Origin: a virus
IMG/VR virus record: IMGVR_UViG_3300037189_022865
Coordinates: 26,597-90,596 of that record
DNA: 64,000 bases
Reading direction: 5' to 3' (one strand)
The position numbers were made by a program, and so were the translations under genes. Under the pieces are notes generated by a model. That model saw only the letters and a program-made list of their open reading frames with translations. It did no database searches and was not told where the DNA came from. Of this stretch, positions 3,709 to 55,398 are shown in pieces (position 1 is the first letter of the stretch; every line of letters begins with the position of its first letter).

Positions 3709-4020
3709 ATGGAAATTAATAAATCAATAGCTGTTTACGTTCGCGACCGAGTGTGAGTTTTGCGACGTAAAAAAGATCTTTTACCTTTAAATGTGAGTTA
3801 TACTGTTGACGGTCTTAAATGGACCGCAAACAAAATGGGGAAATCCCTGTTTTATAAGAATGCTCGTGTTTTCAAAGGTAGAATAATCTCAGAAGACGGA
3901 CCATTAGTTGAGAATCCAGATGTGTTCTATGAACCATTTGATGCGATAGATCACTATAATCTGGATCTGAGAAAAGCCGAACTAAGGAATTTAGATAAAG
4001 CATTAAAGATGCTATACTAA
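3709..4020 (+). CDS. Hypothetical protein (TGA=Trp at 3754)
   Basis: ATG 3709 follows the previous stop and is in frame with ORF 3760-4020 across one TGA. Confidence 0.65.
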
Positions 4021-4078
4021 ATAGGCTGCTTAGCCCCGATCTTAGAGAAGGGGTATTGTTACATTAAATGTATAAATT

Positions 4079-4684
4079 TTGGAAAATAATCGACTATACA
4101 AGGCCTTTATGGTAATCTCAACTATTATCGGGTTAGTTCTTACCTTAGGCTTGTTTCACAAAAACAACGATCTAAAAAAGGACTTTCTTGAAATAAAATC
4201 GCGTACTGATTCTATGGCCATAACCATAGATTCTATGCGGTTTGAGCTTAACAACCTTAGAGAAACCCACCCCTATCAAAACAAACGGTGGAAATCTAAG
4301 AGAACAGGTCTGTGTACCGAGGGCAATTTCTTTGGGTTTTTACTTTATACCCCAGTGGATACTAACATATCCTCTGAGTTCGCTATCGCTCTTTCTGATT
4401 GAAAGGGCCCAGTAGCTAAAGTAAATTCTGTGAGAAGGCACTCGAATTGTAAAAGTCAACATTACCACGGTAAAGCAATTGACTTAGCGTGGGATGAGAC
4501 TGTTATTGCCTTCTTACTATCCGAAGAAGGTAGGTCTTGGCTAAAAGAGCATGGGGTAACCTTCTATATAGAAGGCAAACCCGGGAGCAAAAAAGTACGT
4601 CGTTATCTTTACGATGAGGTTGCTTCTGAGTATGTATTCTTTAACCCCAATGCTAGCGGAGACCACATACATTTAAATATCTAA
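4079..4684 (+). CDS. Membrane-anchored peptidase M15-type peptidoglycan hydrolase (TGA=Trp at 4400)
   Basis: ORFs 4079-4402 and 4430-4684 are in frame; N-terminal TM plus coiled coil; catalytic NSVRR..SQHYHGKAID..DHIH. Confidence 0.8.
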
Positions 4685-4688
4685 TACT

Positions 4689-4729: not shown

Positions 4730-4975
4730 ATGGAAGCTATCTTTTTTGTCCTCTTATCAACGATCGCAGGTTCGTTGTTTAAGCACTATCTGGAGCCCGT
4801 GGTGTTAAACAAAGCGGCTCATCTTTTCCCTCAATCTAATATCTTTAACACAAAACCAGAAACAAAAGTAGAACCTACGGAGTTTAATAACGTAAGGTTT
4901 AAGCGCACTATCAATGGATATACAACAATCTATGTTTCGAGTCCAACACGGACAGATACAACCTACGTCAGGTAA
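4730..4975 (+). CDS. Small membrane-associated hypothetical protein
   Basis: Hydrophobic N-terminus MEAIFFVLLSTIAGSLF. Confidence 0.5.
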   Translation: MEAIFFVLLSTIAGSLFKHYLEPVVLNKAAHLFPQSNIFNTKPETKVEPTEFNNVRFKRTINGYTTIYVSSPTRTDTTYVR

Positions 4976-6794
4976 AGAACTCACCAAAGAGATCAAGTCC
5001 TGAGACATAATAGCTTTAGATACAGAGGTAACTGGAGATTTTGATAATATCTTTGATAGAAGAATTGTCATGCTGCAGTTTGGTAACAAAGAAGTTCAGT
5101 ACATTATAGACACAAGGAAAGCGGACCCTACTAAGCTCCTCAAAGAATTATCCAAGAAAAAGATCATAGGTCACAACATTAAGTTCGACTACCAAGTTAT
5201 AAAGACTAACTATGGGATTGAGCTTGAAGATCTATTCGATACCATGCTTGCAGCACAAATACTGGAGTGTGGGATGGATGAGGAGAAGGGACATTTTACC
5301 CTAGAGCAAACCGCTAGACGCTACACAGGGTATCACTACTACTCCAATCAAGGTAACTTATTTATTCCAGCAGTTACCAAAAAGATAAGGAGTTCTTTTT
5401 CTAGTATAGGAGATAAACCGTTTGAGTTAGAGCAGCTCTATTATGGAGCTCTTGACGTTTCGGTTGCATATCTCTTGTATGAGAAACAGAAGATTCAGCT
5501 TGAGAAAAATGAGCTTGAGTCAACAGCAGAGCTAGAGTTCAACTTCGTGAAAGTTCTTGCTGATATGGAATTGAGTGGTGTATATCTCAACCAAAAACAG
5601 TGGTTAGAGAATTATCGCAACACACTACAACAAACCGAAGAATTGCGAAAGAAACTGGAGGAGTATCAACAACTAAACTGAAACTCCCACAAGCAGGTTT
5701 TACCTGTACTCAAAGAGCTTGGTGTTGACGTGTCGATTATAGACAAGAAAACAGGTGAGATAAAGGAGTCTGTATCTCGCGAAGTCTTAAAGAAGCAAAC
5801 AGCTAAGGCTGGTATTCTGAAGACTTATCTTGACTATAAGCTTTCCCAAAAGGAATCATCTACCTATGGTGAAAAGTTTTTAAGGCACGTCAACCCAACT
5901 TCTCAAAGAGTTCACTCTTCTTATATGCAAATTATGAGAACTGGAAGAACTTCTTCTACTTCCCCTAATTGTCAATCTATTAAGAGGGGATCTATATACC
6001 GATCAGCATTTCAAGCTGAAGAAGGTAATACCTTTGTAGGTGCAGACTTCTCTAATATAGAAGCAAGGATACTCGCTGATAAGTCTAATGACGAAAACTT
6101 TATTAACATCTTTATAAACAATGGTGATTACCATTTAGAAACTGCTAAGCTAGCTTTTGATAATCCTAATCTAACCAAAGGATCTGAAGAAAGACAGTTA
6201 GCAAAGACTATTAACTTCGCAATTGCTTTTGGTGCTGGAGCTAAGAAAGTATCAGAAGGTGCTGGAGTTACTTTACAGAAAGGAAAAGAACTATTAAATA
6301 AAGTTTATACTGCTTTCCCAAAACTTAGTCCTTACTTTATAGAGATGGGTAATCTCACAAGGGAAAGAGGATATGTTGTGTGTAATGAAGTATCAAAAAG
6401 AAGAAGTTATATACCGTTTTATAATGAATACTTAGAAGCTAAGAAACATTATAACTACTTTAAAGCAATGGGTTGGGATCCTCATCCTACTATTGCATCA
6501 GCATATAAAACTTGGGATTCTAAAATACAAAGATGGTCACAAAACTTGCCTGTCCAAGCTACCGCTGCTGACATAGCAAAAGCCACCTGTATAGAACTCA
6601 GAGAGAAGTCTAAAAAAATTCCATTCAATCTCGTTTTATTCGTACATGACGAAGTTGTAGTAGAGTGCGAAAAAGAACGCGCAAACACTATATCTAAGCT
6701 TATTGAAAAAACAGGATTAGAATGCTCGAAAAAATTCCTGAATCATTTAACAGTCCCTGCAGAAGCACACGTATCTTCGCAGTGGGAAAAGTAA
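4914..6794 (+). CDS. polA: Family A DNA polymerase with 3'-5' exonuclease, 626 aa (TGA=Trp at 5001, 5679)
   Basis: ExoI ALDTE, ExoII HNIKFD, ExoIII YGALD, LN[W]NSHKQV, motif A DFSNIE, motif B RQLAKTINF, motif C HDE; fragments share one frame. Confidence 0.95.
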
Positions 6795-7896: not shown

Positions 7897-8603
7897 CGGG
7901 CGTAACGTGTGACTATTGTAACAACACTAAAGTAAAATCGGTGTACGCTAATACAACTAATCCATGGAAAGATTTTTACCATGGGGACTGTAGAAGCTGC
8001 TTCGAGGTTAGGTGGCTAGACGCTGCGGGGATATGTGAGAAGTGTAATAGAGGCAATTCAAAACTCTCTTTACGTACTGTAAACATTTGCGATAGTTGTA
8101 TTACTGCAAATAAAATATCCCCAATATGCAAAAGATGTGCTTCAATCGTTGAAGAATATGCTGAAGGTACTACTGAATGTATACAGTGTGCTTACGGTAA
8201 AGACTTTAAACCTGATCCACAATACGCCACTGGTGTGTGTATACAATGCAAACGCGTTACGCACTTAGACGGTGATGAAACCTGCTTAAGCTGCCACATA
8301 ATAAATTCGGCGGCTAATGCGCAAAACAACGACTGGGGTAACCTAAAAAGATGCGGCTGTGGAGAAGTAATTCACAAGAAGCAAAAGGTATGTCCCAATT
8401 GTGCAAGCAAACCTGTAAATTTGCGTAAGGACAAGCTGTGTCACGGCTGTCAAACGCACTTCAAACCAATATCTATATACGACACCTTCTGCATACCTTG
8501 TAAAGAAAACATTCATCGAGGTGTGTGTACCTCTTGTAGAGAGCTTTCCAACTCTATGGACTCAAGGGGCTGGTGTTCTAAATGCCAATCATCTAATGGA
8601 TAA
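7893..8603 (+). CDS. Cys-rich multi Zn-ribbon domain, probably a frameshift extension of the 6799 gene
   Basis: 14 CxxC/CxC knuckles including CDYC, which lies upstream of the first usable start codon (GTG 7941). Confidence 0.75.
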   Translation, partial: LTGVTCDYCNNTKVKSVYANTTNPWKDFYHGDCRSCFEVRWLDAAGICEKCNRGNSKLSLRTVNICDSCITANKISPICKRCASIVEEYAEGTTECIQCAYGKDFKPDPQYATGVCIQCKRVTHLDGDETCLSCHIINSAANAQNNDWGNLKRCGCGEVIHKKQKVCPNCASKPVNLRKDKLCHGCQTHFKPISIYDTFCIPCKENIHRGVCTSCRELSNSMDSRGWCSKCQSSNG

Positions 8604-10592
8604 AAGAACTCAAATGCAGGAGGAAGCAGTTGCCTCCTGAAAACAAAACAATGGATGGGGTACCCTGTTGATATATACGGGCGGGGGGAAGACACGATGC
8701 GGCTTAATGGCTTACCAAGATTTAGGCAAGCCCAGAACATTAGTAGTCACCTCCCGCCTGCCCATTCTAAACCAATGGAAAGAGGTTATGACAGGAACTA
8801 ATATAAAGTTTATGTGTATCCAATCTGCTTACAAACATAAAGGATATTACGATTTAGTTATAATAGATGAGGTTCATAGATCTTTATCACCTAAATATAG
8901 GGAAGTATTTAGCGGCATAAAAGCTAAGCATTTAATGTGCTTAACAGCCACACTTCCAGAAGAAGCAGAGTATGTAGAGTTCTTAGCTAAAACTTGTCCA
9001 GTAATTTATGAGAAGAAGCTAAAAGATGCTTTAAAGGATGAGATGGTTCCTCAGTTTGAGATATATAACTTTTCAGTACCTCTACACAAAACTATATCTG
9101 GTAAGTACAAACTCTTTGACAATAAGTTTACGCAGTCAATGATAAAACTTACTAGAACTCTAATGGATAATCCTAAACTGAAATCAAAATACAAAAATGT
9201 TTTTGAGTTAGCTCAAGCTGCTCAGTGGGCTTCTTTTGATAAGGAGACACAAGGATTATGTAAATCTTATTGGGCTGGAATGACTATGCGAAAGCAGTTA
9301 GTTTATTCTAATCCGGCGAAGCTAAAAGCAATTCGAGATATACTAAACCACATGGGGATGAGTCGCAAGTGGATAATCTTTACTAAGTCCATCGCATTTG
9401 CTAAAAGTTTGCAAGAGTATTTAGGAGGTAACACTGCTATATACCACTCAAAACTAAAACCAATAGAAAGAGAATTAAACTTAATAGCATTTGAACAAAA
9501 TCAGTTTAATATTCTTATAGCAGTTGACGCTTTAAACGAGGGATTAAATGTCTCCCAAGTAGAAGCAGCTATTTGTGCTGCTGGCGTATCCACAGAGTTA
9601 ACAAATTCCCAGCAGTTGGGTCAGTAATTCGGCCCGTACCAAGTTAATTCGGTGAAGCCTAAGTCGAAAGATATGGTAATACCGAGCCAAGCAGGAAGAA
9701 ATTCCGGGCGTGTGTAGAGCACATCCCCTTTGTCGGGGAGTAGTGAAATATCTGATAAATATTTTGCGAAACACTTGGAATTTATCAAAAATTGTTGTAC
9801 ATTTGTATAATGGAAAATATAATATGGAAATCTATAGTAGGATCTTTACACTATTCAGTAAGTAATACTGGGTTAGTTAGGAGAGATTCTCATGAGAAAA
9901 TGCACAACATAAATAAAAAACCTTTCTTGACAAAAGAGAAAATATTAGCACCTAGCACAAATAACACTAAAGGGTATAAAAGGTTACTTATAAAATATCC
10001 ACAACGTATTAAAACTAAATCAGTTCACAGATTAGTGGCTGAAGCTTTTGTACCAAACTTGATGGCTAAACCTCAAGTAAATCATATTGATGGGGATATA
10101 TTAAATAATCACTGCTCTAATTTAGAGTGGGTAACTAATGATGAGAATGCTGAACACGCAGCAAGGACCAAAAAACGTAAGCACAAAAAAGGTTCTTCAG
10201 TTGTGTGGAGCAAACTTACTGAAAATGAAGTTGCACAAATACCAGAGTTATTACAAAAATTTAGTGTTGCTGAAATAGCTAAACAATTTAATGTTAGTAA
10301 ATCTCTTATTCACGAGATAATCGCTGGGAGGACTTGGAGGCACTTAAACCTCTTTGAGCCTAAAGCAAGAAAGTGTGAAAAGTATTTTGATAAATTAAGA
10401 TATGTGCCGACCACTGCTGAAAAGCAGGAAACTTCGTAGTCTAATCAACTACTATAAAGAAGTTTACAAAAGCGAATTATACGTCCTGAAAAAGGAAAAA
10501 AGCCCGTGTTTATTAATCTGTACACAGAAGGTACGGTTGAGAAAACTTGGGTAGAAAAGAAACTTAAATCAAGCGGATTAAAAAGCAGATGA
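8596..10592 (+). CDS. SF2 (DExH) helicase; exons 8596-9621 and 10473-10592 (to 10673 if the last TGA is read through); TGA=Trp at 8638
   Basis: Motif I TGGGKT, II DEVH, III TAT, V LNEGLNV; motif VI QQLG|RIIR is restored by splicing. Confidence 0.9.
9775..9805 (+). promoter_or_regulatory. Bacteroidota housekeeping-sigma-type promoter inside the intron
   Basis: TTG (9775) - 20 nt - TACATTTG (9798-9805) matches -33/-7 TAnnTTTG; ATG lies 4 nt downstream. Confidence 0.6.
9810..10439 (+). CDS. Intron-encoded HNH homing endonuclease (NUMOD4-HNH type)
   Basis: WKSI..YSVSNTG.VR; VHRLVAEAF; VNHIDGDILNNHCSNLEWVT; C-terminal HTH-like segment. Confidence 0.92.
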   Translation: MENIIWKSIVGSLHYSVSNTGLVRRDSHEKMHNINKKPFLTKEKILAPSTNNTKGYKRLLIKYPQRIKTKSVHRLVAEAFVPNLMAKPQVNHIDGDILNNHCSNLEWVTNDENAEHAARTKKRKHKKGSSVVWSKLTENEVAQIPELLQKFSVAEIAKQFNVSKSLIHEIIAGRTWRHLNLFEPKARKCEKYFDKLRYVPTTAEKQETS

Positions 10593-13360: not shown

Positions 13361-14337
13361 TGGAATATAGACACATATCCTATGGGGTTGATTCGGCCCT
13401 TAACTATATAGACAAGAGGAGAAAGGGCGAAATTGTGTCGCTTAAAACTTCCTTTAAAAAACTAAACAAAGCTCTAATGGCTGGCATTGACTGGGGTAGA
13501 ATAATGACTATTGCAGGTCAGTCAGGAGCAGGTAAATCTACCATACTAGAACAATTTAAAAAAGATTTCTTAGACCTTAACGAAACTAAATTTGAGATTT
13601 TATCGTTTGACTTCGAGATGTTAGTAGAGGATCAGATAGCTAGGTATCTAGCGTCTGTAAGAAACAAAACTCTTAAAGATATTTATTCAGCAAATACTCC
13701 TTTAGAAGATATAGAGTATGAAGCTATCAAGAATGTACTTGACGAAAGAAAGAAATCACCTATATTCTATGTAGATAATGCTGGTACTTCTGAGCAGATA
13801 CAAAAAACTATTCTTACCTTTGCGCAAGAAAGAGATTTATTAAACAAAAACTATGGTTTGGTTGTTACTATTGACCACGTTCTATTGACTAAAGGAAAGA
13901 CGGGAGAACAAGAGAAAGCAACAGTAGACTCTCTAATGGAGATGTTGAATGATGTGAAGAAATACTTTGCGCATATTGGCCTTAAATGTTTGATCATTTG
14001 TCTAGGTCAGTTAAATAGAGAGATTGAAAAAATGGATAGGGTAGACAACCCTTTGTATCACTTCCCAAATAGGAATGATATCTTTGCTGCCTCATCAATA
14101 TATCACACATCAGATTACGTTATAATAACACATAGACCATCAACCGTATCTGGAATAAAAGAAGGTTACGGTCCCCCAAGAAAAAACCACCCCAAAGGAT
14201 TACCACTAAAGTATCCGGGGGATGAAACAAGAGACATGATTTACTGGCATATTATTAAGGAAAGATTTGGTAAGCCGGGGATTATAGCATTAGCCGAAGA
14301 CTTTAAATTTTCTAAACTAGAAGAAGTAGAACTATAA
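13360..14337 (+). CDS. dnaB: Replicative DnaB-like SF4 helicase
   Basis: GQSGAGKS, FDFEM, TIDH, QLNR, KERFG motifs. Confidence 0.9.
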   Translation: MEYRHISYGVDSALNYIDKRRKGEIVSLKTSFKKLNKALMAGIDWGRIMTIAGQSGAGKSTILEQFKKDFLDLNETKFEILSFDFEMLVEDQIARYLASVRNKTLKDIYSANTPLEDIEYEAIKNVLDERKKSPIFYVDNAGTSEQIQKTILTFAQERDLLNKNYGLVVTIDHVLLTKGKTGEQEKATVDSLMEMLNDVKKYFAHIGLKCLIICLGQLNREIEKMDRVDNPLYHFPNRNDIFAASSIYHTSDYVIITHRPSTVSGIKEGYGPPRKNHPKGLPLKYPGDETRDMIYWHIIKERFGKPGIIALAEDFKFSKLEEVEL

Positions 14338-15869
14338 TGAACTTAGTACAAATCTCCGGAATGCCTGCTACCGGAAAAACAACAGGCGCTAGATTCTTAG
14401 ACCCTAAGAAAACTTATTACATAGATGCAGACGGTAAGGGACTATCTTGGAAAGGATGAAAGTCAGACTATAATTCTGAGAATAAGAATTATGCCAAGAC
14501 AACAGACATACCAACTATCTACAAACTTATCAAAACAATTTCAGAGAGCAAGCCAGATATTAACTGTATTGTTATAGATACTATTAACGCCATTATGACC
14601 ACCGAAGAAATGGAGATCTTAGAGAATCCATCTAGAGATCAGTGGAAGGATCAATAGCTAGGTCCTGTACCTGTCTAATTGCTGGAAACTCCTTAGAGTT
14701 TATTATACTACAAAGCAGCTTTGAAATATAGGCAAACTTGAATGTTAAAAAATAATAAAATTGGACAATCAGCAGCGAAGCTCCGAACAGGAGAACGTTC
14801 AGAGATCATCCCTCCGAAGGGGAGTAGGGAAATTATTTATTCCCGAAATGGCAGGACTTCGTAGATGTGTATATTGTTTAATAGACAGTTCTAATAATAG
14901 AATTAGATATATTGGTAAAACAGAATGCGCGTTATCAAAAAGATTAAGAGAGCATTTGCAAGACTCTAGAAGACATAATACTAAAGTCAGTAGGTGAGTG
15001 CACAATAGAGTAGATAACGGATATGATATAATAATGCGCCCATTAATATGTGATGTAGATTTAAATGTGTGAGAAAAAAGATTTATAAAAATCTTTAAAC
15101 ATAAGAACTTTAAACTATTAAATATGACTGATGGGGGCGGCGGTGTTTTAGGCACAAAGCAAACTGAGGAAACAAAGATTAAAAAGTCTTTAGCTCTTTC
15201 GGGTAAAAAGAAAAGCCCAGAACACATAGACAAAATGAGAAAAGCTTTTTCAAAAACAGCATTTGTTTACAACGCTGTAAATGGTAAGTTTGTAGGGGAG
15301 TATAGCTCATTTAAGCAAGCCAGCAAAGATTTGATAGTTAATCATACAGGACTACTTCTTTCCGCTAAATACGGAAGACATGTAAAAAACTACAGAGCTT
15401 TTTATACATATCAAGGAAATGTAATTCCAGTAAAACCAAAATACTATAAGAAAACATCTATTGAGAAATATATAAACGAAGAAGATATGATCCAAGCCCC
15501 GTAGAAATATGGGGATTCTTGTTAGCGACCTCAGTGTGGAATCTTTACAAAATGATGCGCGAAATTAAGCGAGACGATCTTGTCGTATTCGTTATGGCGC
15601 ACTGTGAACCATACGATGTCAATGGCATCACGCATTACCGAACAATGACAAACGGTAAGAAGCTTTCTAAAATTAATCTAAATGCTTTTCTAGCATACAA
15701 TCTATATACTAAAGTAACTAAAACCCCTGATAATAAATTTACCTACGATCTAATAACACAGTCTGATGGGACAACTGAGGCGAGAAGTGTTATGGGTGTT
15801 TTTGATCCTAAGATTGAGAACAACCTTGAGGTAATAAGAAAATCAGTCCTTGAGGCTGAAATTGGTTAA
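14337..15869 (+). CDS. AAA_24 / Sak4-like ATPase; exons 14337-14651 and 15522-15869; TGA=Trp at 14457
   Basis: GMPATGKTT, IDADGKGLSWKG[W]K, IVIDTIN, spliced junction QWKD|LATSVW, VMAH; TAATG-coupled to dnaB. Confidence 0.85.
14652..15521 (+). mobile_element. Group I self-splicing intron in the Sak4-like gene
   Basis: P1 AGGAU/GUCCU with U-G wobble; IGS GCUAG pairs with 3' exon UUAGC; core TTGCTGGAAA..AATCAGCAG; P7 GATCAT(14804)/ATGATC(15487); terminal G. Confidence 0.92.
14848..15504 (+). CDS. Intron-encoded GIY-YIG homing endonuclease with NUMOD-like tail (TGA=Trp at 14995, 15070)
   Basis: CVYCL..RYIGKT..RLREH..[W]EKRF..LLNMTDGG; ORFs 14761-14997 and 15124-15504 share a frame. Confidence 0.88.
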
Positions 15870-15888: not shown

Positions 15889-16467
15889 ATGTATCAAGCA
15901 ACTATGTTCAAAGAAGAGTCTTACTCTGGTGGAGGCTCCAAAATCCCCGTAGGAATTCACACGGGAAATATCGTGTTTAACGGTCTATCCACTGACTCTA
16001 CATGAACTGATATAAACTTTTCGGAAGTAGCCACCGGAAAGGTAATTCATAAACGTCTCTTTGTACCAACTGGAGCTAATCCAAAAGAGGGAGAAAGCAT
16101 TCAGGATGCGTACAACAGGGAAGTAACTAAAAACCTCAAGCATATTGTGCACGTAATGACTGCACTGCTTGGAGATGAGGCTGTTGCCTCTTTCAGCGCC
16201 GAAGACTATAAGACCTTTGTTGCTAATGCCGCATCACTGCTTAATGAGCAAAAGGGTACCGCAGTAAACCTCAAAGTCGTTCCTGATTATAAGGAAAAGA
16301 TGTATCCAGAGCTCCCCTCATATGGTAATTATGTGGAGAAAGCAGGAGGAGTATCTCGTCTTTCCTTTTCCAAGAAAGAATTGGAGGCAATCAGCGAAAT
16401 GTCAGCAAATCGCGCTAAGAAAGATGACGGAGCAATGTCGCAAGAAGACGTAGACTCTCTCATTTAA
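15889..16467 (+). CDS. Putative ssDNA-binding protein (TGA=Trp at 16003)
   Basis: Follows the Sak4-like ATPase; IPVGIH N-terminal motif; acidic tail EDVDSLI; in frame with ORF 16147. Confidence 0.6.
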
Positions 16468-16505: not shown

Positions 16506-16551
16506 ATTTTACCTGGTGGGTAAAGAGTGGTTCGATTCCACTCATAAAAGC

Positions 16552-16818
16552 ATGAAGACTTTATCTGAATTCATTAACGGTGATCCAAAGAAGCTCGAAG
16601 AACTTCTGAAGGTCAACCCCACTATTGGGGATTCCATTATAATAGGAACCTTTAGCTGTACTTTTATAGACAGCTTAGGAGAGACTATAAAACTAACTAA
16701 ACACTGGTTTATGTTCACTCGCTACTTCCACTTAAATATGGAGTCTCAGGCAGAGTGTTTTGTTATAGACAAGTATAAGGCTGAAAAAATAATAAGAATA
16801 AGAGTACATAAAAAATGA
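16552..16818 (+). CDS. Hypothetical protein
   Basis: ATG 16552; ends at TGA in an ATGA overlap with the primase start. Confidence 0.6.
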   Translation: MKTLSEFINGDPKKLEELLKVNPTIGDSIIIGTFSCTFIDSLGETIKLTKHWFMFTRYFHLNMESQAECFVIDKYKAEKIIRIRVHKK

Positions 16819-17783
16819 AGGCAATCTACTACACTGCTGATTGAAAAACCTCAGTAAACCAAGAGGCAGCGTTTGAATACTACATGGGGCAAAAGATAGT
16901 TCTTGGCAAGCTATACAAATCCCCATTACGAGAGGACAAGAATCCAACAGCAGCATTCTTCTATTCAGAGAGAGGCACACTCTACTTTAATGATTTTGGT
17001 ATAGCGAAGATGTACTCCGTTATAGACTTTGTTAAAGCCAAATTCAATTTAAATTACGAGCAGGCGCTAACTAAGATGATTGCAGATCTTCCGTTAATGA
17101 AAGACGGAGAGGTTACTGTTAAGGAAAAGGAACAAGTGTCTTACTCATTTACAAGACTTCCTATTGAGGATGGCATGTATTACTGGGATAAGTACAAAAT
17201 TCCTAAGCATATAGTCGCAAAATACAGCTTTTTTGCTAAAAATATTTATAGAAACGAAGAGTATTGGGCACGCTCAACAAAGAACAATCCGATTTTTGTT
17301 TACAAATTTCCTTCGGGGAATATCAAAATCTATCGTCCGCTAAGTGTGGACAAGTCCAAAAAGTGGGGAGGAAATGCGAACACTAAAGATATAGGTGGTC
17401 TATTTCAACTTCCTCAAAAGGGAAGTGTTTTGTTTATAACATCTTCTATCAAGGACATAATGGTCTTAAGACAACATGGGTTTAATGCTGTTTGCTTTAA
17501 CGGAGAAGGATATGGGACCTCTGATAAAAGTTACTCAGAATTACAACCGTTCATCGTTGGGCTTAAGAAAAGATTTAAACATATAATACTGTTTCTAGAC
17601 AGTGACGACGCTGGCGTAAGTTATGCGATGAAACTGTCCAATAAAATTAAATGTAAATGAGTTTCTCTCCCCAGAGAAAAGGACATCTCCGACTTCCAAA
17701 AGAAGTACGGCGTGCACAAGACCTTCAAACAGATCAAGAAATTGATCAAAAAAACAACCACACATGATAATCTCCCATTTTAA
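16815..17783 (+). CDS. DNA primase, TOPRIM type (TGA=Trp at 16842, 17658)
   Basis: SPLREDKNPT..FNDFG N-domain; ITSSIKD; FLDSDDAG; KDISD appears only after TGA read-through. Confidence 0.88.
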
Positions 17784-18141
17784 ACGACTAGAGCTCGTTC
17801 TTATCTTCGGATTCTTTCTGATGCTCTCGTCTATCGCAATGTCCGTCGCAGTGATGGTAGATTTCTTCCAAGGAACTTCAGATAAACTGGATGTCCTCGT
17901 AAAAGACGCTTACTCTTCTAACACTACCTACGATGTGAATCTCATCGAGTATACCGATGGAAACGCGTACCACTACTGCATTCCAGCGGATCGTCAAACG
18001 GTTAAAGCGGGTATAGAAGAATTCAATATGCAGTGCGCGCTTGAATGCACAGAAAGCTGCCCAGATTCTATCAAGGTGATGCTGCTTGAAACAGTATTTG
18101 ATCAGCAACAAGTTCTAAAAGACACGATGATTTACAAATGA
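17764..18141 (+). CDS. Membrane-anchored hypothetical protein
   Basis: N-terminal TM; ends at TGA in an ATGA overlap with ung. Confidence 0.6.
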   Translation: MIISHFKRLELVLIFGFFLMLSSIAMSVAVMVDFFQGTSDKLDVLVKDAYSSNTTYDVNLIEYTDGNAYHYCIPADRQTVKAGIEEFNMQCALECTESCPDSIKVMLLETVFDQQQVLKDTMIYK

Positions 18142-18797: not shown

Positions 18798-19549
18798 TGA
18801 ACTTCTTCTTAGATCCAACGACCCGCAACCAAGTCAAATCCGCTGGCAGCCGTTTCCTCACTCCACCGTATCCATGTTCAGCCTGCTTCAATGGCGTTAT
18901 GGAGACAAGGTTGATAAAGCCCGTGCACGTGAATCCTCCTGCAGCAGTTAAGCTGACTCAGGACAAGACACGGCTCATGCAGGCTCTCAACAGGAATGAG
19001 ATCCCAGTCCCCGATTTCTTCAGCGCCGATAAGTACTACAACAAGAAGACTGGCGATTTCCTTGCCGGTGTATTCCTTGACGACTTTTCGTTCGATGACT
19101 TCATGGCTGTGGTAGTGAATCACGGTTTCCAGATGGAAATTGATGATTTGGTAAGCGCAGTCCAAGCAATGACCGGAATGCAAAACAGCCTGCCCAGCGC
19201 AGTAGTTCAGCGGAGAAACAAAGGAGAAGTGACCGGCACCGTCACTGCAATCCCAAATGGCGGAAACAAACTGTTTGATGGTAAGAACACCATCACCAAT
19301 GGAATCCTTCGCGAAAATCTGCCCTCCTTCCTGAAGGATGATTACCGTGAAGAGATCCTCGACACAGTGAACAGGGCGATTGATCTTCTCGATCTGGATT
19401 ACGCAACTGCCACAGTGTCCATCAATACCGACAGCCATGAAGTGCTTGTTGTGGACATCAGCACCAACTTCGTGCCAGATGATGCCATCGCAATCCGATA
19501 TTACATGGATGAGCTGAACAAGGCCCAGTCAAACAAAAAGAAGAAATGA
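18797..19549 (+). CDS. Degenerate ATP-grasp-like protein
   Basis: VNPPAAVKLTQDKTRLMQALNRNEIPVP resembles a RimK-type N-domain; the C-terminal E-x-N site reads DIST. Confidence 0.5.
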   Translation: MNFFLDPTTRNQVKSAGSRFLTPPYPCSACFNGVMETRLIKPVHVNPPAAVKLTQDKTRLMQALNRNEIPVPDFFSADKYYNKKTGDFLAGVFLDDFSFDDFMAVVVNHGFQMEIDDLVSAVQAMTGMQNSLPSAVVQRRNKGEVTGTVTAIPNGGNKLFDGKNTITNGILRENLPSFLKDDYREEILDTVNRAIDLLDLDYATATVSINTDSHEVLVVDISTNFVPDDAIAIRYYMDELNKAQSNKKKK

Positions 19550-20013
19550 GAACCCGCAATAACCTCGAGGAATTCGCTTGAGAACAACTAACGAAGGAGG
19601 GGATAACTTTTGAGTACGAAAAGGAAATTGAGTTATTCCCTTCCTTTGTTTTTAAAGGAATTGACATCGAAAAGAGAAACAAACAACTTAAAGTAAAGAA
19701 CAACAAGTATCAAAATATTGTATATTCTCCAGACTTTAGCGGAAAGAATTGAGTAATTGAGACAAAGGGTCTTAGGAGGCCCGCATTTGACCTGAGATGA
19801 AAGATCTTTAAGTATACGATAAAGAATAAGGGGTGATTACTATTAATGCCTACAAACCAAAAAGAGGTGTTAGTATGTATAGATATATTAAAAAAGTGAA
19901 TAAAGAATGATAGAGAATGATCCGATAACAGAATATTACAAATCTCCGAGAATATCCAACTCCCTGCTAAAAGCAATCGCAAATCCAAGAATACTAAAAC
20001 TAAAGAAGGATAA
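19546..20013 (+). CDS. Holliday-junction resolvase-like PD-(D/E)xK endonuclease, absent from the ORF track (TGA at 19579, 19750, 19798, 19834, 19897, 19918; one of the last two may be the stop)
   Basis: LEEFA[W]EQL..FEYE..YSPDFSGKN[W]VIETKG..FDLR[W]KIF. Confidence 0.85.
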
Positions 20014-20920: not shown

Positions 20921-20950
20921 TAAAACTTAAACAGTCTAAAAGGTAACTAT

Positions 20951-21568: not shown

Positions 21569-21914
21569 GCTGATCGGGCGGTATGATAATCTCAAAGATC
21601 TATCGCTAAATGAACTCGGGTTAAGTGAAAAAGACCTCTATGAATTAGAGGAAGTAAGGAGGGATAAGAAGACGTTTATACTTAAATCAATTGAACGCTC
21701 TTCCCCTTCTTTCGGAAGATTCATGTCCCAGGCTTACATTTATTATGAGACCGCAAAAAGCAAGAATAAGAAAGCTTTTGAGTCGGAGACTAAGAGTACG
21801 GTTGTGAAAAGACTGACTAAAAAGATCCACAAACTAAACGCCGAAACGTCACGAGTGCAGGACATTATGTCCATAGTTGTCGATCTTTACTTATTCTCAA
21901 GGGCTAAAAATTAG
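21495..21914 (+). CDS. Hypothetical protein (TGA=Trp at 21555)
   Basis: The frame of ORF 21723 is open back to ATG 21495 across one TGA. Confidence 0.5.
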
Positions 21915-37400: not shown

Positions 37401-40400
37401 GTCGGAACAGCGTTTTTATTTTTAGCTACTATTATTCTAGTTTTATCTATTCTAGATAAATGACTCACAAATTGATTTACGGGTTGATTCTCAATGTTAG
37501 TATCCTTATTATTTACACTGTTAGGAGATGGGGTTCTTAATCCAAATCCTCCAGATATTTTGGTAAGATTACCATCGCTATCTTTAGACCCTATGAAAAT
37601 ATCAGATAAATCTTCACTAGTTAAAATATTAGAGTGAGGTATTTTTGTTGGATCAGATATAACATTAAGATAATTAACAATAGCTTTATATCTAGCTGAT
37701 TGCTCTAAGCCTCTTTGTTCTAAAGACGCCGCGTAAGTTCTTAATCTAGATTTCAAATCCTCTGAAATTAAAGGATTATTTGCTCCTCTGTTATCTCTTC
37801 TAATAAAAGTTATTGGCCCTAGTAATGTGGCAGCTTCAATACTTGTATTTGATTGTGTACCATTAGCTGTAGTTGTATAGTTGACTTTATAATTTCTAAG
37901 TAAAACTAGCTTACCAGCTCTCTCCCCTTGATCTATAGAAGCTACTAAGTTTTGAGATCCTATATCATTAAAAACACTTTGAGCAGCACCTTTAAAAGCC
38001 CTTGTGTCATGCTTCCATTTTCCTTTGTCGTCTTTAACTCTATTTAAATCGCCATGAATTAAAAAGTCAAGTTCTGAAGCAAGTTCTAATAGTTTTGGAT
38101 CAATGCTTTCTCTTTTTAAATCTGGAAAAAGATTTTTAAAACCTGCTTGTTTATTACTTAACAAAGTTATTGTTTTCATAGATTCATCGTGATGAGCATC
38201 TGAAAAAACTTTAACTAAAGTATGCATAGGAAAAAACTGCATGTTTTGATAAACAACAGGTTCCCCAGCTTTTATCTTTCTATAAACATCCGGTAAATAA
38301 GCGGATTTAAGTAAAAGATCTTCAAACTGTTTTAACTTATCTATAAAGTCGTAAAGCGGTTTGTATTTCTCGTCATTACTGTTAACTGGTTTTGTTGCTA
38401 ATTGTATGAACTGAGGTTTAACAACATTCCCAGTTTTTAACTTGATGTTTTGTATTATTAAATAAGGTACTCCAGGTCTAGGTAATTTACTTGCAGGTAT
38501 GTCTTTTCCAAATACTTTTCTTGCATCGTTTATACTTTTAAAAGCTATTATTTTACAATACCTAGAAAAGTTTTTAATAACTTCTTCAGCGTTTTCTAAA
38601 GCATCTCTCCCCCAAACTTGGTCTATATATTTTTCAAGTAGTGGTGCTCTAGAAATTTTACCGTCAGAATCTAGCATATCTGCTAAGTCTTCTTGTGGTT
38701 TACCATCGTATGTGTATTTTATACTTTGACTTCCTTCTTGTACGTACAATGTTTCGTGACCAGTAACTTGTCCATTTATTTTATAAATGTTATACAAGTT
38801 TGTATTTTGTAACGTAAATTCTGGAAGTTTCGAAGTATTTATACCAACATTTCTCTCGAAATCTCCAAGTTCTTTGTCGTTAATAACTCCAACAATTTGA
38901 TAGTAAGTGTTCCCGCTATCACTCCCTGTTATTTTTTTTACCAAAACAACACGCTTTGCCTCTTCTCCAGTAGCCTTTCTAGAATTATCTATAAACACCA
39001 TTAACTCATCTCCAATACTTAGTGGAGGTATACCGGAATCTTCGTTTCCTTCAAATATAGTAAAAGCTGGATTTTCTAAATTATACGGTTGAGACTTTTG
39101 AGAAACCCCTGTAGGTGGAGTACTGGGTGGTAAATTATTGTCAAAATTAATAACGACTGGTTCATTTATTACATGGAGTCCAGATTCTTCTTGTGGTTGT
39201 TGATCAAAACCCACTGAAGTTCCTTCGTTATCTGTGGCAGTTTTATTTTCTCCCGGAGCGTCTGGAGTTTCGTCTGGAGTTCTTTCTTCACTAGGTTTAA
39301 CTGACTCTTCTTTAGAGGCTGGTCTAGTAATATCAACAGAAACATTTCCAGTTATTTCTGAGAGTACTTTTATTTGCTCATCTAAGTTTTTTATAGCTTC
39401 TTCCGATAAATTATCTTTTTTAGGATAGGGGGCTACTTTAGGATCTACAAAATGTGTTGCTCCTTTAGTGTTAGCAAGCTGCGCATATGATGTTGCTCTT
39501 GAGGTTGCTGCATACATCCATTGGTTGTATATTGTTGGATTAGAAAAGTTTTTATTATCTTCAACAGATATATCAACGTATACCTCATCAACCGTGATTC
39601 CCATAGCACTTGGTGCTAAAAGAACGTCAGCGTCAGGTAATGCTTTTTTATACTGCTGTAATTTTTCTTCGTTACCAACAATAATAACTCTACTTCTTTG
39701 TGGATTAGCTGCCTTAGATTCTGCAAACTTTTTTACAATGCTTGTACCTGCTTCTGCATAAGTACCAAATATATTAATCATACTAACCGATGGGTCTAAA
39801 GAAGACGCAGTTGGTATTTGACTAATTGGCGTGTCAGATTTAAATGCATTTTGTAAATCAACAACTTCAGAAACACCAGAACGATACGTAGTAGATAGGG
39901 GTGTTATTTGTTTTAAATTTTGCGATAATGCTACAGAATGTCCTAAGGGATCTCCTTTAGGAGTTCTTTGTCCTTTTCTATATTCAGCTTTAACCTCTTC
40001 AGTTCCTTCATAATATTCTTGTTCAGTAGTAACAAAGTTTGCTATATAGTTATCATCTAAAGCTGGCTTAGATATATTTCCAGAAACAGGTTGATTAGGG
40101 TCGTATAAAAATAGATATTTAACTCTGTTACCTTTAGTTGTATTATTATACTTATTTACAGCTCTAACAAAATTGTTTATGTCCCCCCTATTTAAAGCCC
40201 CAGCTTCATCTACTATAATAAATTTTACTTTTGGGGACAATGTTCCGTTTTCTAATTCAGTGGTTAAATCCGTTATTTTCTTTGGATTATCTGGATGTCC
40301 CAATGATTCCGCAATATTTTTTGCAGCTTTATCATAAGCAGCCGCACTTGCAATTTCTTCATTAGCATACCCCATTACATATTTAAATAGTTTGGAAACT

Positions 40401-50438: not shown

Positions 50439-50456
50439 AATATTTGTTTTTTGGGT

Positions 50457-53400
50457 TTATCGTTGTTTATTTTGGGTAGTAGTCATGAGCAAATCTAAAG
50501 AAACTTTAACATCGGTAGATGGCTCAAAGAAAAATCTTCCTCCTAAATAATAGTCTTTTAATCTGCTAGAATTAAAGAAAGATTTACTATAATTTATATT
50601 TGCTAAATTGGGTATTTTATCTATATAAGAAAATGGTGAGCTTTGAATAGAATTCCAATCAGATGCCCAAATAGGTTGGTTATTAGATACAGTTAAATCT
50701 CTAATGTTATTTATTCTCCACTGTCTATCCGTAAGTTTAGTAAAAGCTACTCCATTAGAAACATCTAGTTGAAAAGGAGATGGCGCAACTAAAGACTGAA
50801 CTCCAGATGATTGAGAGGAATTATAAAATATTACTTTACTATAAGGTGTTTCTGTTTGGAAAGTATTTGAGTTTACATCTACAGATGAACTGTATGCGCA
50901 AAGTACAACTGCTCCTGCTGTTTTTATAATTGGAGGCGACGTTGTTAATATTACATCAACAATGTGCGGGTATTTAATATCGTAATACTTTTGGTAATTT
51001 AACTCTCCATGCTTATAGATATTAGTATAATATTTTTGAGAGTAAAATGAATTGGAATCTGAAAAAGAATACGTAGGTATATAAGAGTGGAAAGATACCC
51101 AATGTTTACTTAAGAAAGAGTAGGATAATGTAAAAGATTTATTCTCAAAGAAATAAGAATCCTCTAATGATACTTTATTGTTAGTTCCTGTTTTATCTTT
51201 ATAGTAAAATGAATGGTTATTAAACCAAAGTCTATCGTTTGCAACAGAAACAGATCCGGGATTATCAGTTGTAGTTGGGTAATAAAGAAACTTAGAAATC
51301 CAGTTAGCTTTTATTTTATGATCTTTCTTAGTAAGAATTAATCTTTTATACCTAGGATCGTAAACACTTTTATATCCAAATCCAACTGGGGATACATGAG
51401 ATATAAATGGATATTCTTGGTTTGTTAATAACTTAAACTGCTTAGGTAAATTAAACTCCCCATTTTCTTGGAAGAAATTTCTCATACCAGACATTGATAT
51501 ATCCTCTATTGATCCTCCGAGCATAATAGGACTTCCTGAAAAAGAATCCATATAAAATGCACCGTATTCGGTAAGTAATCTAGAAGACCAATGCTGTTGA
51601 CCACCAAATCCGTTCATTGAGTTTTTCATTTCCTGTGGAGGAACTCCCAAGACTTCTCCAGTTCCAAGGTAAATAGTGCTAACATCAGTCTCTATATTTT
51701 GAGGTCTAGTCGGTATATAGAAAATAGACTTTGGAGTAGTTGCGTATAGTTTATTAAAGCTAACAAACAAATCTGTTACAGGTCCTGAATTACCTCCTAA
51801 CTCGTCTGTATAATTATTAGGAAGTATTATCCTACTTTTATCTTCTAAAGAAGTGTTATCGTCTTTTTGAGAATACCATATTCTATATGGGTGATCTTCT
51901 ATACAAAGATTACAAAACTTATAATTAAACGCTATTGGGTACTTTATTTCTAGTCCATCTAAGAATGAAAAAGAATTATTATAATTATATATCTCTGGAT
52001 TTATAATTACATCTTTTACGTCTGGAGAATATAACTTTCTTAAAACGTAAGAAAACATATCCTCTAAGTTATCAGCGGTAGTAGATGCATTCTTGTTTTT
52101 AAAGTAATCTAACTTCTGATCTTTAGCACTACTTCTGAATTCTGGATTAAAGTATGTATCTTGAGTTGGGAAAGAAAAGAAAACGCTATAAGCATCTAAA
52201 GTAGTTGGTGTGGTATCAGAAACAATTCCAGTTTGCTTAAAAGAGGATTCCATTAATGAAAGTCTGGATACAGAAGTATCACCTCCTAGTACGATAAAAC
52301 TAGTATTTAAGTTTGTGGCGTAAAGAGTTTTGTTCTGAAGCTTTTTATACTGAATAGTATATAAGTTTGAGAATACATCTTTAAACTGTCTTATACTTCC
52401 AAAGAAAGCTTTGTTTCTCCAGTCTCCTAATGGGGCAAGTGCTTCAGTACCGCTTTGTAACTTTAGTAAGTGAAGGGGTATGCTAACACTATTATTAACA
52501 AACGTCCAATCTTTTACATGCTCGTAAGCAGAGTTTCCTTCTACAGCGCCTTGATAAGTTTTATTAATAAATAAATTATTCTGAATATTATGGTTTATAC
52601 CACTAACAGTTGGAAGATTGTATTTATTAAAATACCTATAAGTTCTTCGACTGTGGACATTTACATCATAACTTTCTTTAGAGTTAAACTCTTTTAACTT
52701 AGTAGCATCGTTGTAAATATCAGAGTTTGCACTTACCCAGTTTTTATCTAAATAGATTTTCTCAAATTTAACGTAAGCTCCATCAAAAGACTTTTCTTTA
52801 AATACACCTTCTGAAGAAATGAAGGCAAACTCATTAGCTCTAATACCTATACCATTATTTATAGTTCAATTAAAATCAGCAGGAGCTAAAGACCCCCCAT
52901 TATAGTTTCCATTATAATTATTTGGGTAAACAGTAAATTCGTACCTTCTAGTAACACCTTCTCCTTCTTGAACTTCAAGAGGAACAAAAGCTCCTTTAGC
53001 CAAAACTGTTCTTTCAAATGTTCTATCTCCATAAACAAAATAGTGCCCGACTATATTTTCATTAGCTGGGTAACTTACATTTGAAAACAAAAGCCCCACT
53101 TTAAAATTAGTAACATTATTTAAAGAGTCTCTTATTTCAGCTCCAGGCATTCTATGATGTCTTATCGCAGTATTGTAGGGTTCTATTAAGTTATTCCAAT
53201 AATCTCTTCCCCAATATCCATCTGCATTGTTATCGCAAGTTTCTACATAAGGATAAGTAGTTTGAGTTTGATGATAACCCATATAACCTCTAATATAAGA
53301 GAAACCTGCATGTGGTTGTGCTGCTGCAGTAGATATTTGTTTCCATCTAAGGTTGGTAGAGATATTATCACCATAAACAGTTGTTGTTCCAGTGTCCCAG

Positions 53401-54710
53401 CTAGCTCCATCTGTAGTAACACCGTTCGTTCCTATTAACGGATTAGAACCAGTAATAGTTATATTAGCAGGTCTACCGGGAATGTGAAATACTGGAGATT
53501 CCGTTCCATCTCTAAAAACGTATACTATTCCTAAAGAATAAACTTCATCTTCCATTAAAGAGCCTTCGTCAAAGTAATAAACACCTTGCCTAGTTTTATT
53601 ATCTACTTCATCATATCCTGAAAGAGGTTTATAAAACTCTGTTTTTATCTTAGAAGCGTATCTTTGATACTTTGAGTAATCTCTATAATCTCCAGAAGTA
53701 TTTGCTAAAAACAGTCTATTAGTTTCAAACGTATGAGCTAATACCTTTTTAATCTTTATCTTGTCATTTAGTATATCATCTAACGCTGATTGATAAACAA
53801 CATCATTTGGATTACCAGTGTAAACAAAACTTTCTGTAGAACCATTCCAAGGCTGTGGTTGAAGAACATCTACAGCTGAGATATTACCTTCATCTGTTGT
53901 TCTTTTAATAACTGCTATTTGGTAGTAGTCAAATATATTATCAGTAGAACTTACTGTAAACTTTATTTGCTTTTGCTGAGGCTTAACGTAATAATCAGAG
54001 TTAATATCGTTTGAACCACCATCGTACATATTAACAGTACTATCGTCATCTAAGTAAGATTAAGTACCGTTTCCTATAACCACAGGTCTGGTAACATTTG
54101 TCCAGTTAGTGGAGTTATTATACTTATCTAAAAACCTAACTGCAAAGTAATACACACCTACTTCTAAAGCTCCAGCACTATTAGATTCTATAGCATCTAA
54201 AGTAATGTTAGGAATTGTATAATCTCTAGAGAATTCTATCTTTGGGCAAATTAAAGCCCCGTCTCCTAAATACTGGAATACATCAGTTATATTCATTACT
54301 CGATAATCATTGTAGTTATCTGTAAAGTATATATAACCATCACATCCGTTTCTTACTTTATATAAAGCGTTTATAGGATATTTATCAGAAAAGTTTAAGC
54401 AAGAAGCAATTACTATACTGGTGTATTGACAGTTAGAACCTGAATACTTTCCTATTTCATGTTGTCCTGCAGGATCGTATAAGAACACTATAACCTCATC
54501 AGTTTCAGTTAAAGCGTGTCCAATTACTTTTTTATTTACTGGAAAGTTTATACTGCAAGCAGAATTTCCAGCTTCGTTTGATATGGAAGGAAGTTCTCCA
54601 TCTTTAGTTTCTAATACAGCATTTAAGGCGAATCGGTAAGTTCCCTCTTCTTGAAACTTTGGATGAAGATCCGTATTTATACCTTTTGTAAATGTATTAG
54701 AATCCGACAT
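50457..54710 (-). CDS. Tail stabilisation/nozzle (muzzle) protein; TGA=Trp at 52868 and an in-frame TAA at 54062
   Basis: Three track ORFs in one frame; FTKGINTD..YRFALNA, EDEVYSLGIVYVF..SPVFHIPG, FTLSYS..WVSFHSYIP resemble crAss-like tail stabilisation proteins. Confidence 0.75.
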
Positions 54711-55398
54711 TTTCTTGATTGTTTAATGTTTGGAAAAGCTGTGAGTATCTATTACTTCTTGGAACTAAATGGTTATTGATATTCTTTATATTCTCAAGAC
54801 CATCTATTGTGGGAAGATTAAGATTCATAGACTTCTTAGATAATGTAGACCACATCTTTAAGTGAAATTGCATTCTACTTTCAGATCCTTCTTCCTTCAT
54901 CATGTACTTAGTCATCCAGTATTTATAAAGAACATAGTGTGTAAGAGCTTCTTTTAAAGTCTCATCATCAGGAATTAATAGATCCCCGTTCTCATCTACT
55001 GGATTAGCTAGATATGAAATAACAATAGTTCCTGTGCCCATGTTGGTAGTAACTACTCCAGAAGGAGATATAGAATACTCGTATTTACAAGTTGGACAAG
55101 GAACTAGCAATTTAAGATCACAAACACCATTATGGTAGGGGTTTGTTGTGGCACGCATTGGGTAGTATTTATTATCTATTTCTACTACTATTTGCGTTAT
55201 ATATTTTAAGTCGTTTGGTAGTGTGGTTTTATGTTCTTCAACTTCAAGTTTAGCGGTCTTCTGCTCAAACTTATTCTCTAAATTCATTTGTAAAAATCCT
55301 TTAGCGATATGCTCAAGCATTGTTGCTTCATCTCAATACTTTTCATCGAGTATCATTGCCAAACTAGCCAAGACTGATTTAATTGAAATAGTTTTCAT
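54697..55398 (-). CDS. Tail tubular/ring protein (TGA=Trp at 55335)
   Basis: ATG 55398 in frame; ISYLANPVDENGDLLIPDD motif; position before the nozzle gene. Confidence 0.7.

Follow-up and report, generated by a model that had tools for sequence, protein, structure and literature searches.

The DNA analysed here, 64,000 nucleotides in length and hereafter called the window, comprises bases 26597-90596 of one 90,596-base virus contig (IMG/VR record IMGVR_UViG_3300037189_022865; G000) and covers 64 kb of a freshwater phage of the order Crassvirales. Conserved genes of this phage contain in-frame TGA codons, and we assign a probability of roughly 0.85 to the reading that TGA is translated as tryptophan (Trp, W), most likely by means of the phage's own tRNA(UCA), which would be charged by the host synthetase. 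Between near-identical genomes TGA and TGG interchange, and the tRNA(UCA) gene is conserved in independent assemblies. An initial annotation, made from the sequence alone, had proposed TGA as Trp and cited gut crAss-like phages as precedent. Recoding of TGA to Trp with suppressor tRNAs has indeed been published for crAss-like phages (Yutin et al., 2021, PMC7886860), and the lineage described here is an additional case, which derives from fresh water and not from the gut.

The amino acid read at TGA was deduced from homologous positions. For the exonuclease, the homologue search was carried out with X at the four TGA positions, so that the query contained no W there. Among 120 homologues, the column of residue 63 contained W in 67, F in 22, Y in one and a gap in 30 sequences. 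At residue 120 W was found 106 times, besides L 4, gap 3, T 2, F 2, K 1, N 1 and E 1, and at residue 318 110 times, besides F 2, Y 1 and gap 7. Because database proteins were possibly translated with table 4, loci were additionally examined at the DNA level. An alignment of 38 exonuclease proteins retrieved 72 IMG/VR loci with up to 21 kb around the exonuclease gene, 69 of which were used after omission of three near-identical copies. In the parts aligned to the proteins of this phage, 53 loci were without in-frame TGA and nine had six or more, while seven loci with one or two TGAs (L030, L033, L034, L036, L051, L063, L081) stand outside both tallies. The 53 loci provided 338 alignment cells opposite TGAs, which were occupied by W (102), F (54), Y (35), I (23), S (16), K (15), E (15), gaps (14), A (11), G (3), C (2; the residue expected in homologues at UGA sites of selenocysteine, Sec) and rarer residues, with aromatic residues in 191 cells. 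The background frequency of W was 1.3% of the 67,311 aligned residues in the same loci, and W occupied 310 of the 681 cells in the columns opposite TGG codons of G000. Within the nine recoded loci the commonest codons opposite the TGAs were TGG (44) and TGA (42), and in the cultured phage phi14:2 ten TGAs were faced by W (3), F (3), Y (1), K (2) and G (1). Judged from these alignments, TGA columns behave like TGG columns, and unlike columns of Ser, Gly, Cys or Sec.

A second line of evidence comes from G002, a contig from another sample which is ~98% identical to G000. Among the aligned codons of both contigs, TGA was paired with TGA 34 times and TGG with TGG 153 times; four pairs were exchanges between TGA and TGG (two each way), one was TGA/GCA and one GGA/TGA. 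For the 37 aligned TGA codons of G000, G002 thus has TGA at 34, TGG at two and GCA at one. Logan contigs from four runs of four other studies cover positions 19500-21100 with 11 TGA codons, and the sole change at these codons, where covered, was A>G at 19836 in one run, converting TGA to TGG; run X16 has coverage gaps within this region. The concern of the initial annotation that the TGAs might be assembly errors is dispelled by their retention in G002 and in four freshwater assemblies, and its proposal of Trp is supported by the W-enriched homologue columns together with the exchanges between TGA and TGG in near-identical genomes.

The genes of the window point rightward up to ~22.6 kb and leftward beyond. 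Translation with table 4 joins same-frame table-11 pieces into genes on both strands and raises the mean length of open reading frames (ORFs) in a greedy non-overlapping set from 276 aa (table 11) to 342 aa. Greedy coding density (0.873 with table 11, 0.880 with table 4, 0.885 with TAG=Q) was dropped as a code discriminator since the values are nearly equal across tables, and homology was relied on instead. The first greedy gene set also included spurious antisense ORFs, such as 18948-19988(-) with nine TGAs, and was replaced via conservation. Alignments made with tblastn to six whole-genome relatives cover 34 TGAs of the contig, 27 of them in 14 genes of the window. The HNH endonuclease ORF contributes two more, based on a PHROG match and aligned loci, which results in 29 TGAs in 15 window genes (Table 1). 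Three additional TGAs are located in two ORFs with no or weak homology (3709-4020 and 21408-21914). Three TGAs near the 5' end of ORF 18033-18797 were excluded from the count, as they precede the aligned part and probably also the true start. These numbers are close to the 31 in-frame TGAs in 17 genes counted originally, and each of the five motifs quoted at that time was found with its TGA in place: LN[TGA]NSHKQV of PolA at 5673-5699, KN[TGA]VIETKG and LR[TGA]KIF of the ORF annotated as resolvase at 19744-19770 and 19792-19809, SWKG[TGA]K of the Sak4-like protein at 14445-14462, and KDISD of the primase at 17679-17693, downstream of the TGA at 17658. PHROG and Pfam matches cross TGAs in PolA, helicase, Sak4, HNH endonuclease, primase, exonuclease, TerL and tail ring protein 1; the TGAs of TerL, which is encoded outside the window, are likewise spanned by its PHROG match.

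These data also bear on the explanation that the TGAs are real stops, in genes that are split, decaying or mis-assembled, or that TGA stands for Gly as in table 25. The small difference in coding density between tables 11 and 4 would agree with it. Nevertheless, its probability is close to nil, as the same TGAs recur in contigs from other samples and studies, domain matches and single high-scoring segment pairs (HSPs) cross them, the mean ORF is lengthened under table 4, and G was found in just three of the 338 cells.

No tRNA and no other Rfam family was found in the window. The only tRNA of the 90.6-kb contig, detected by ARAGORN, is encoded at genome 7643-7736 (-), 18.9 kb before the window and beside a tmRNA, and has the anticodon UCA. 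The initial annotation had postulated a phage-supplied tRNA(UCA) outside the window, and the same gene was recovered in four further IMG/VR contigs, all of which hold this tRNA and tmRNA; the tRNA body is identical, with C72->T (G1-U72) in three of them. G002 breaks exactly across the tRNA region, so that the absence of the tRNA there is uninformative. The relatives G001, G006 and G009 possess tRNA(UCA) genes of ordinary length, that of G006 being missed by ARAGORN and detected by the Rfam tRNA model, and in G005, G007 and G008 no UCA tRNA was found. This single phage tRNA is most likely the decoder. It would presumably be loaded with Trp by the host synthetase and would compete with host release factor 2 (RF2) at every TGA.

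The tRNA(UCA) comprises 94 nt. In the ARAGORN drawing, which is labelled tRNA-SeC, the acceptor stem has 7 bp and the T stem 5 bp, the extra arm is long and base 73 is G (G73). In Rfam the best family was tRNA-Sec with 38.9 bits, below the gathering score of 47, and five of six D-stem pairs were flagged as non-standard. The extra arm consists of a 6-bp stem and the loop CUUCCAAAA, which contains UCCAA; since the arm stem-loop is identical in all five tRNA copies, there is no covariation by which it could be judged. Of the tRNA-Trp predicted initially, the UCA anticodon is present, but the long extra arm and G73 do not belong to an ordinary tRNA-Trp. A long V-arm with G73 or U73 marks substrates of SerRS (Mukai et al., PMC5389517), and charging with serine is therefore predicted for a tRNA of this shape. 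Thus the tRNA body predicts Ser while its codon occupies Trp columns, which is a conflict. The UCCAA loop of the long arm, resembling a second Trp anticodon hairpin, might let TrpRS accept the UCA tRNA.

The closest described structures are allo-tRNAs and selC*-type tRNAs, which share the long extra arm, G73 and the UCA anticodon; they are known from bacteria as well as phages and also turn up in searches for tRNA-Sec (PMC5389517). These tRNAs have 8/4 or 9/3 acceptor/T branches and inserted Ser, Ala or Cys in Escherichia coli (PMC5389517), whereas the phage tRNA is drawn as 7/5 and its codon is found at Trp columns. If the SerRS elements (PMC5389517), the ARAGORN label and the best Rfam family were decisive, the long-arm tRNA would be charged by SerRS or represent a Sec tRNA, and TGA would mean Ser or Sec. 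We judge this highly improbable. S and C occupy 16 and two of the 338 cells against 102 for W, near-invariant Trp columns (W in 106 and 110 of 120 homologues) are written with TGA, and the four exchanges with TGG, never with a Ser or Cys codon, occurred in a lineage with the same tRNA. Besides, the tRNA-Sec score stays below the Rfam threshold and the D-stem pairs are mostly non-standard.

TGA is depleted at gene ends of the phage and yet not gone, and the reassignment appears to be incomplete. In 50 conserved genes of G000 the first stop past the end of homology was TAA in 40, TAG in seven and TGA in three cases; the corresponding numbers for TGA were 15 of 94 in standard-code and 16 of 218 in recoded relatives. 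A scan for overlaps returned ten rows, comprising the four ATGA junctions listed in Table 1, three junctions that precede the window (two plausible ATGA and one TTGA), and three rows judged spurious because of their location within larger genes. In this phage TGA seems to have both meanings, as expected from a suppressor tRNA that competes with host RF2.

Several observations speak against the assignment of Trp and have to be set beside the evidence above. The fourth exonuclease column (aa 104) contained D in 45, E in 20 and W in 15 of the 120 homologues, plus other residues, and some of the W residues in the database may themselves stem from table-4 translations. Most of the 338 cells derive from a small number of genes close to that of the exonuclease, which served as the anchor of the loci. 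At the TGA site of the giant ORF five relatives have S, S, A, G and A, and TerL aa 388 and aa 643 correspond to G and K in phi14:2. Furthermore, the shape of the tRNA does not predict Trp, neither an RF-1 domain nor a class-Ib synthetase (TrpRS) domain was found in the phage, and the four ATGA overlaps of the window, all of them in the rightward module, look like TGA stops.

Based on sequence comparison, the phage is placed within Crassvirales with phi14:2 as nearest cultured relative. The Pfam model CrAss_Ring_1 matches ORF 54697-55398 with 113.5 bits, and portal, TerL, phage GroEL and virion proteins were matched by PHROGs. Among 50,697 phage records the best match of TerL was Cellulophaga phage phi14:2, 35% identical across 97% of the protein length; many crAss-like phages came next. 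phi14:2 is classified as Crassvirales, Steigviridae, and has the same two-block layout as G000. CheckV estimated the contig to be 92% complete; the whole genome has a size of roughly 100 kb. A 4.7-kb stretch is present, at least in part, in 20 of the public runs listed, and at least half of its sampled words in 17; these runs span 12 studies and are mostly labelled freshwater metagenome. All host genera named in the TerL tblastn listing (Bacteroides, Flavobacterium, Cellulophaga) belong to the Bacteroidota. From the taxonomy, namely the membership in Crassvirales and a nearest cultured relative that infects Cellulophaga, we infer a standard-code Bacteroidota host. This host had been suggested initially on the basis of promoter and start signals, of which the promoter signal is weak: TANNTTTG is weakly enriched (104 vs 84.5 +/- 8.6), the full promoter pattern TTTG-N17-21-TANNTTTG occurs six times vs 3.2 +/- 1.8, and in view of this weak enrichment promoter motifs were set aside as host evidence.

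In an exonuclease tree from a quick maximum-likelihood search, with 55 rows of which 49 are different, the ten recoded rows all belong to one 13-row subclade, alongside three standard-code loci. The code label undergoes three changes on this tree, just one of which is forced by well-supported branches.

Within conserved alignments, TGA accounts for 34 of 209 Trp codons (~16%, about one in six), and its share differs between the two modules with 20 of 78 codons in the rightward and 14 of 131 in the leftward genes (odds ratio 2.9, Fisher p 0.006). The direction was the same in five of six relatives, with rightward and leftward shares of 22/78 and 5/99 in G005, 24/89 and 9/101 in G006, 12/61 and 13/109 in G007, 10/34 and 0/67 in G008, and 15/69 and 8/104 in G009; in G001 there was no difference (14/67 and 19/86). 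A confinement of the recoding to late genes, with replication genes free of TGA or poorer in it, was not observed, the replication module being the richest in TGA. Moreover, the codons are unevenly distributed within genes. The median relative position was 0.32 for 34 TGAs vs 0.61 for 175 TGGs (Mann-Whitney p 0.0012), and shuffling of the TGA label among Trp codons of the same gene, which covered 15 genes with 27 TGAs, resulted in a mean of 0.35 observed vs 0.50 expected (one-sided p 0.00045). All six relatives showed this 5' bias with medians of 0.34-0.39 vs 0.56-0.61 (p 0.0007 to 0.05), although, with their common ancestry and some shared sites, they do not represent independent replicates. 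Errors of start-site assignment do not explain the 5' TGAs, in view of the PolA DTE motif and the starts of the Pfam match of tail ring protein 1 at aa 2 and of the PHROG match of TerL at aa 10. In the literature searches made, no paper on TGA recoding in freshwater crAss-like phages or on a 5' bias was found, and in the text of the preprint of Borges et al. we found no mention of within-gene position, early genes or freshwater. The base following TGA (n=36) was A in 19, G in 11, T in four and C in two cases, as raw counts without a baseline.

For phi14:2, the rightward replicative module has been described as the early class, transcribed by an injected virion polymerase, and the leftward genes as middle and late classes, transcribed by the host polymerase, with middle promoters upstream of g108 and g110 beside GroEL (10.1101/2020.03.07.982082). 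By layout, the tRNA(UCA) would lie in the equivalent leftward stretch upstream of GroEL, an analogy drawn to a relative with 35% identical TerL.

TGAs in a module that is early in phi14:2 are awkward if the phage must first make its decoder, and they would be easier to reconcile with a host which itself reads TGA as Trp, i.e., a table-4 organism, whose code the phage merely follows and in which the phage tRNA is accessory. The relatives G005, G007 and G008, in which no UCA tRNA was found, would also fit such a host. We consider it quite improbable, however, since TGA represents such a small part of the conserved Trp codons, large genes are rich in TGG without any TGA (e.g., 23 TGG in the 1769-aa ORF), ATGA overlaps with a TGA terminator persist, standard-code sister phages occur inside the same clade, the tRNA(UCA) is kept in five assemblies and the listed hosts are all Bacteroidota genera. 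We know of no table-4 lineage in the phylum Bacteroidota.

With TGA read as Trp through the phage tRNA, the distribution of the codon could indicate that it gates the start of infection rather than the end in this freshwater crAss-like clade, a proposal we make tentatively and regard as rather doubtful. PolA, primase, helicase and exonuclease would then become full-length only after host-dependent transcription has yielded the suppressor tRNA; until then, ribosomes would break off translation at low cost close to the 5' ends.

In comparison with known systems, the recoded phages of the gut, including Lera phage (PMC7886860, PMC12386605), are the most similar. They belong to the same order, carry TGAs in TerL, helicase and other hallmark genes at positions of Trp in homologues, encode a suppressor tRNA(UCA) and have standard-code relatives at short distance. 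The phage described here differs in its freshwater habitat, its marine nearest cultured relative phi14:2 and a single tRNA instead of a tRNA block. According to both reports recoding affects mostly late or structural genes, in contrast to the enrichment in the replication module found here; Yutin et al. describe it chiefly in late genes (PMC7886860), and Borges et al. in structural and lysis genes, with replication genes being variable (10.1101/2021.08.26.457843). The animal-gut clades of the latter work likewise read TGA as Trp in phages of standard-code hosts, are depleted of TGA as terminator and have a suppressor tRNA in some genomes only. They are described with a code-change module, whereas no RF1 or TrpRS was found here, and the model proposed for them places the gate at structural and lysis genes; in its Agate example the replication genes lack TGA (10.1101/2021.08.26.457843), whereas this class of genes is richest in TGA here. 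phi14:2 (NC_021806) shares the rightward replication block, the leftward block of virion, TerL and GroEL genes, and a tmRNA-like gene. Apart from this tmRNA-like gene, ARAGORN detected no tRNA in bases 1-100,000 of phi14:2 (100,418 bases in total); unlike the present phage, phi14:2 has uninterrupted genes according to the record annotation and PolB in place of PolA.

For annotation, the genes of this clade require TGA as Trp, as otherwise PolA, primase, helicase, exonuclease, TerL and several virion proteins appear truncated or split. With these findings, TGA-to-Trp recoding reaches beyond the crAss-like phages of the gut into a freshwater lineage close to phi14:2, a cultured model with known transcription programme. 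Enrichment in replication genes, the 5' bias and the surviving ATGA terminators depart from the published picture of late genes and a lysis timer, and a tRNA body that predicts Ser with a codon at Trp columns offers a test case for the recruitment of a synthetase during code change.

Table 1. Window genes and ORFs with in-frame TGA codons, and ATGA overlaps. G001 is a relative, G002 the ~98% identical contig; residues are given in one-letter code.
Feature	Position	Strand	TGA codons	Matches and context	Opposite the TGA
103-aa ORF	3709..4020	+	3754-3756	translation only; begins 3 nt past the stop of the previous gene; no G001 match covers it	
201-aa ORF	4079..4684	+	4400-4402	one G001 HSP (aa 26-201) crosses the TGA; no PHROG or Pfam match	Y in G001
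DNA polymerase A (PolA)	4914..6794	+	5001-5003, 5679-5681	PHROG_17, aa 26-624; DTE exonuclease motif past the first TGA but ahead of the first table-11 start (5070)	W at both sites in 54%-identical relatives; TGA and TGG in G001
DNA helicase	8521..9627	+	8638-8640	PHROG_16, aa 28-367	W in 2/2 standard-code loci; W in phi14:2
Sak4-like protein, N-terminal half	14337..14657	+	14457-14459	PHROG_2872, aa 3-104	standard-code loci W 12, S 6, gap 4, G 1; TGG in G001
HNH homing-endonuclease ORF inside the Sak4 gene	14761..15504	+	14995-14997, 15070-15072	PHROG_314, aa 36-211	standard-code loci W 2/2, then W 1 and R 1
192-aa ORF	15889..16467	+	16003-16005	G001 HSP aa 1-192	standard-code loci Y 4, F 1, W 1, P 1; TGG in G001
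DNA primase	16815..17783	+	16842-16844, 17658-17660	PHROG_12622; G001 HSP aa 1-322	standard-code loci, site 1 W 2, L 1, I 1; site 2 Y 11, P 6, F 4 and others; TGA and TTC in G001
155-aa ORF (resolvase of the initial annotation)	19546..20013	+	19579, 19750, 19798, 19834, 19897, 19918	G001 identity 59%, E 1.6e-52; Pfam DUF1064 20.6 bits, below the cut-off of 24.7	two sites W in 10/11 standard-code loci; other four variable
Exonuclease (PHROG exonuclease VIII)	19907..20920	+	20093, 20216, 20264, 20858	PHROG_412, aa 6-286	TGG at all four sites in G001
205-aa ORF	20951..21568	+	21092-21094	G001 HSP aa 1-174	standard-code loci W 4, gap 3, Y 1, G 1; TGA in G001
ORF with two TGAs	21408..21914	+	aa 29, aa 50	both TGAs in the part overlapping gene 20951-21568, probably upstream of the true start; 26%-identity match only	Q and K
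1169-aa ORF	27987..31496	-	30882-30884, 31311-31313	both within alignments to relatives	variable (L, I, K, Q); TGA in G001
4286-aa giant ORF	31487..44347	-	43640-43642 (the only one)	single HSPs to five relatives cross the TGA (aa 1-420 at most)	
655-aa ORF	44363..46330	-	44537-44539, 44762-44764, 45848-45850	all within alignments to relatives	third TGA is TAT in G001 and TGG in G002; middle TGA is GCA in G002
1190-aa virion structural protein	50457..54029	-	52866-52868	PHROG_15100; one G001 HSP aa 1-1190	gap in G001
crAss tail ring protein 1	54697..55398	-	55333-55335	CrAss_Ring_1 aa 2-231, spans aa 22	TGA in G001
ATGA overlap	2594..2597	+	terminal	TGA closes ORF 2142-2597, ATG opens ORF 2594-3040; read-through adds 18 codons; homology of ORF 2142-2597 stops 4 codons ahead of its terminal TGA	
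ATGA overlap	16815..16818	+	terminal	TGA closes ORF 16516-16818, ATG opens the primase; read-through adds 12 codons	
ATGA overlap	18138..18141	+	terminal	TGA closes ORF 17764-18141, ATG opens ORF 18138-18797; read-through adds 7 codons	
ATGA overlap	19546..19549	+	terminal	TGA closes ORF 18791-19549, ATG opens ORF 19546-20013; read-through adds 13 codons; homology of ORF 18791-19549 stops 2 codons ahead of its terminal TGA	

The Sak4-like gene is split into an N-terminal half (14337-14657) and a C-terminal half (15519-15869), which are separated by ~860 nt with the HNH ORF. Both halves form one uninterrupted frame in G001, G005, G006, G008, L027, L037 and L039, whereas L028 has the same insertion; the HNH insertion is absent from most relatives. 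An intron or the insertion of a free-standing homing endonuclease is the probable explanation, and no group I intron was found by Rfam at gathering score. As this insertion splits Sak4, TGA does not account for every split gene of the window.

Further observations concern the structure of the contig and its variants. G002 contains ~8.9 kb (its positions 73908-82835) between the matches to the end and the start of G000; as this stretch joins both contig ends, it is missing from the G000 contig. In the freshwater runs X4, X8 and X12 one identical divergent sequence is present upstream of window position 19534, which indicates that the region of ORF 18791-19549 is replaced in other strains. Before the window, a gene encoding a GroEL chaperonin (genome 5357-6967 (-); PHROG_5725, E 1.7e-130) directly adjoins TerL. 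It contains zero Trp codons, and phi14:2 encodes a GroEL as well.

A hairpin is located just upstream of the tRNA(UCA) gene of G000 (genome 7737-7780 (-)) and also in G001, the loops of both sharing GTCGTAAGAT, and in G009 the corresponding place is occupied by a different, GC-rich hairpin. To trace where the long-arm tRNA came from, 185,579 genomes were searched for exact 24-nt matches, without a hit, and blastn of the tRNA/tmRNA region against phage records returned generic tmRNA T-arms and a ThyX-like ORF only. Scanning for sigma-70 promoters and terminators around the tRNA resulted in seven promoter-like sites vs 8.5 expected and was likewise set aside as evidence.

The tmRNA next to the tRNA(UCA) is encoded at genome 8562-8808 (-), 17.8 kb before the window, comprises 247 nt (62.9 bits; Rfam gathering score 47) with a predicted 30-residue tag, and lies ~0.8 kb upstream of the tRNA gene with a ThyX-like ORF in between. 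In G001 a tmRNA adjoins the tRNA(UCA), and in G009 a tmRNA-like 3' end is found ~0.3 kb upstream of it. The Rfam tmRNA search detected no more than this partial 3' end in G009, and no tmRNA in five standard-code relatives. A role of the tmRNA as a general part of a code-change module was rejected, as the recoded relatives G005-G008 have no full tmRNA. A tmRNA-like gene exists in the standard-code phage phi14:2 also (NC_021806.1, 4031-4502 +; called by ARAGORN, RF00023 with 46 bits vs a gathering score of 47, E 6.8e-16). It occupies an unannotated gap between g004 and g006, and abundant early non-coding transcripts have been reported for phi14:2 at the g004-g005 and g005-g006 junctions (gp66 preprint, 10.1101/2020.03.07.982082).

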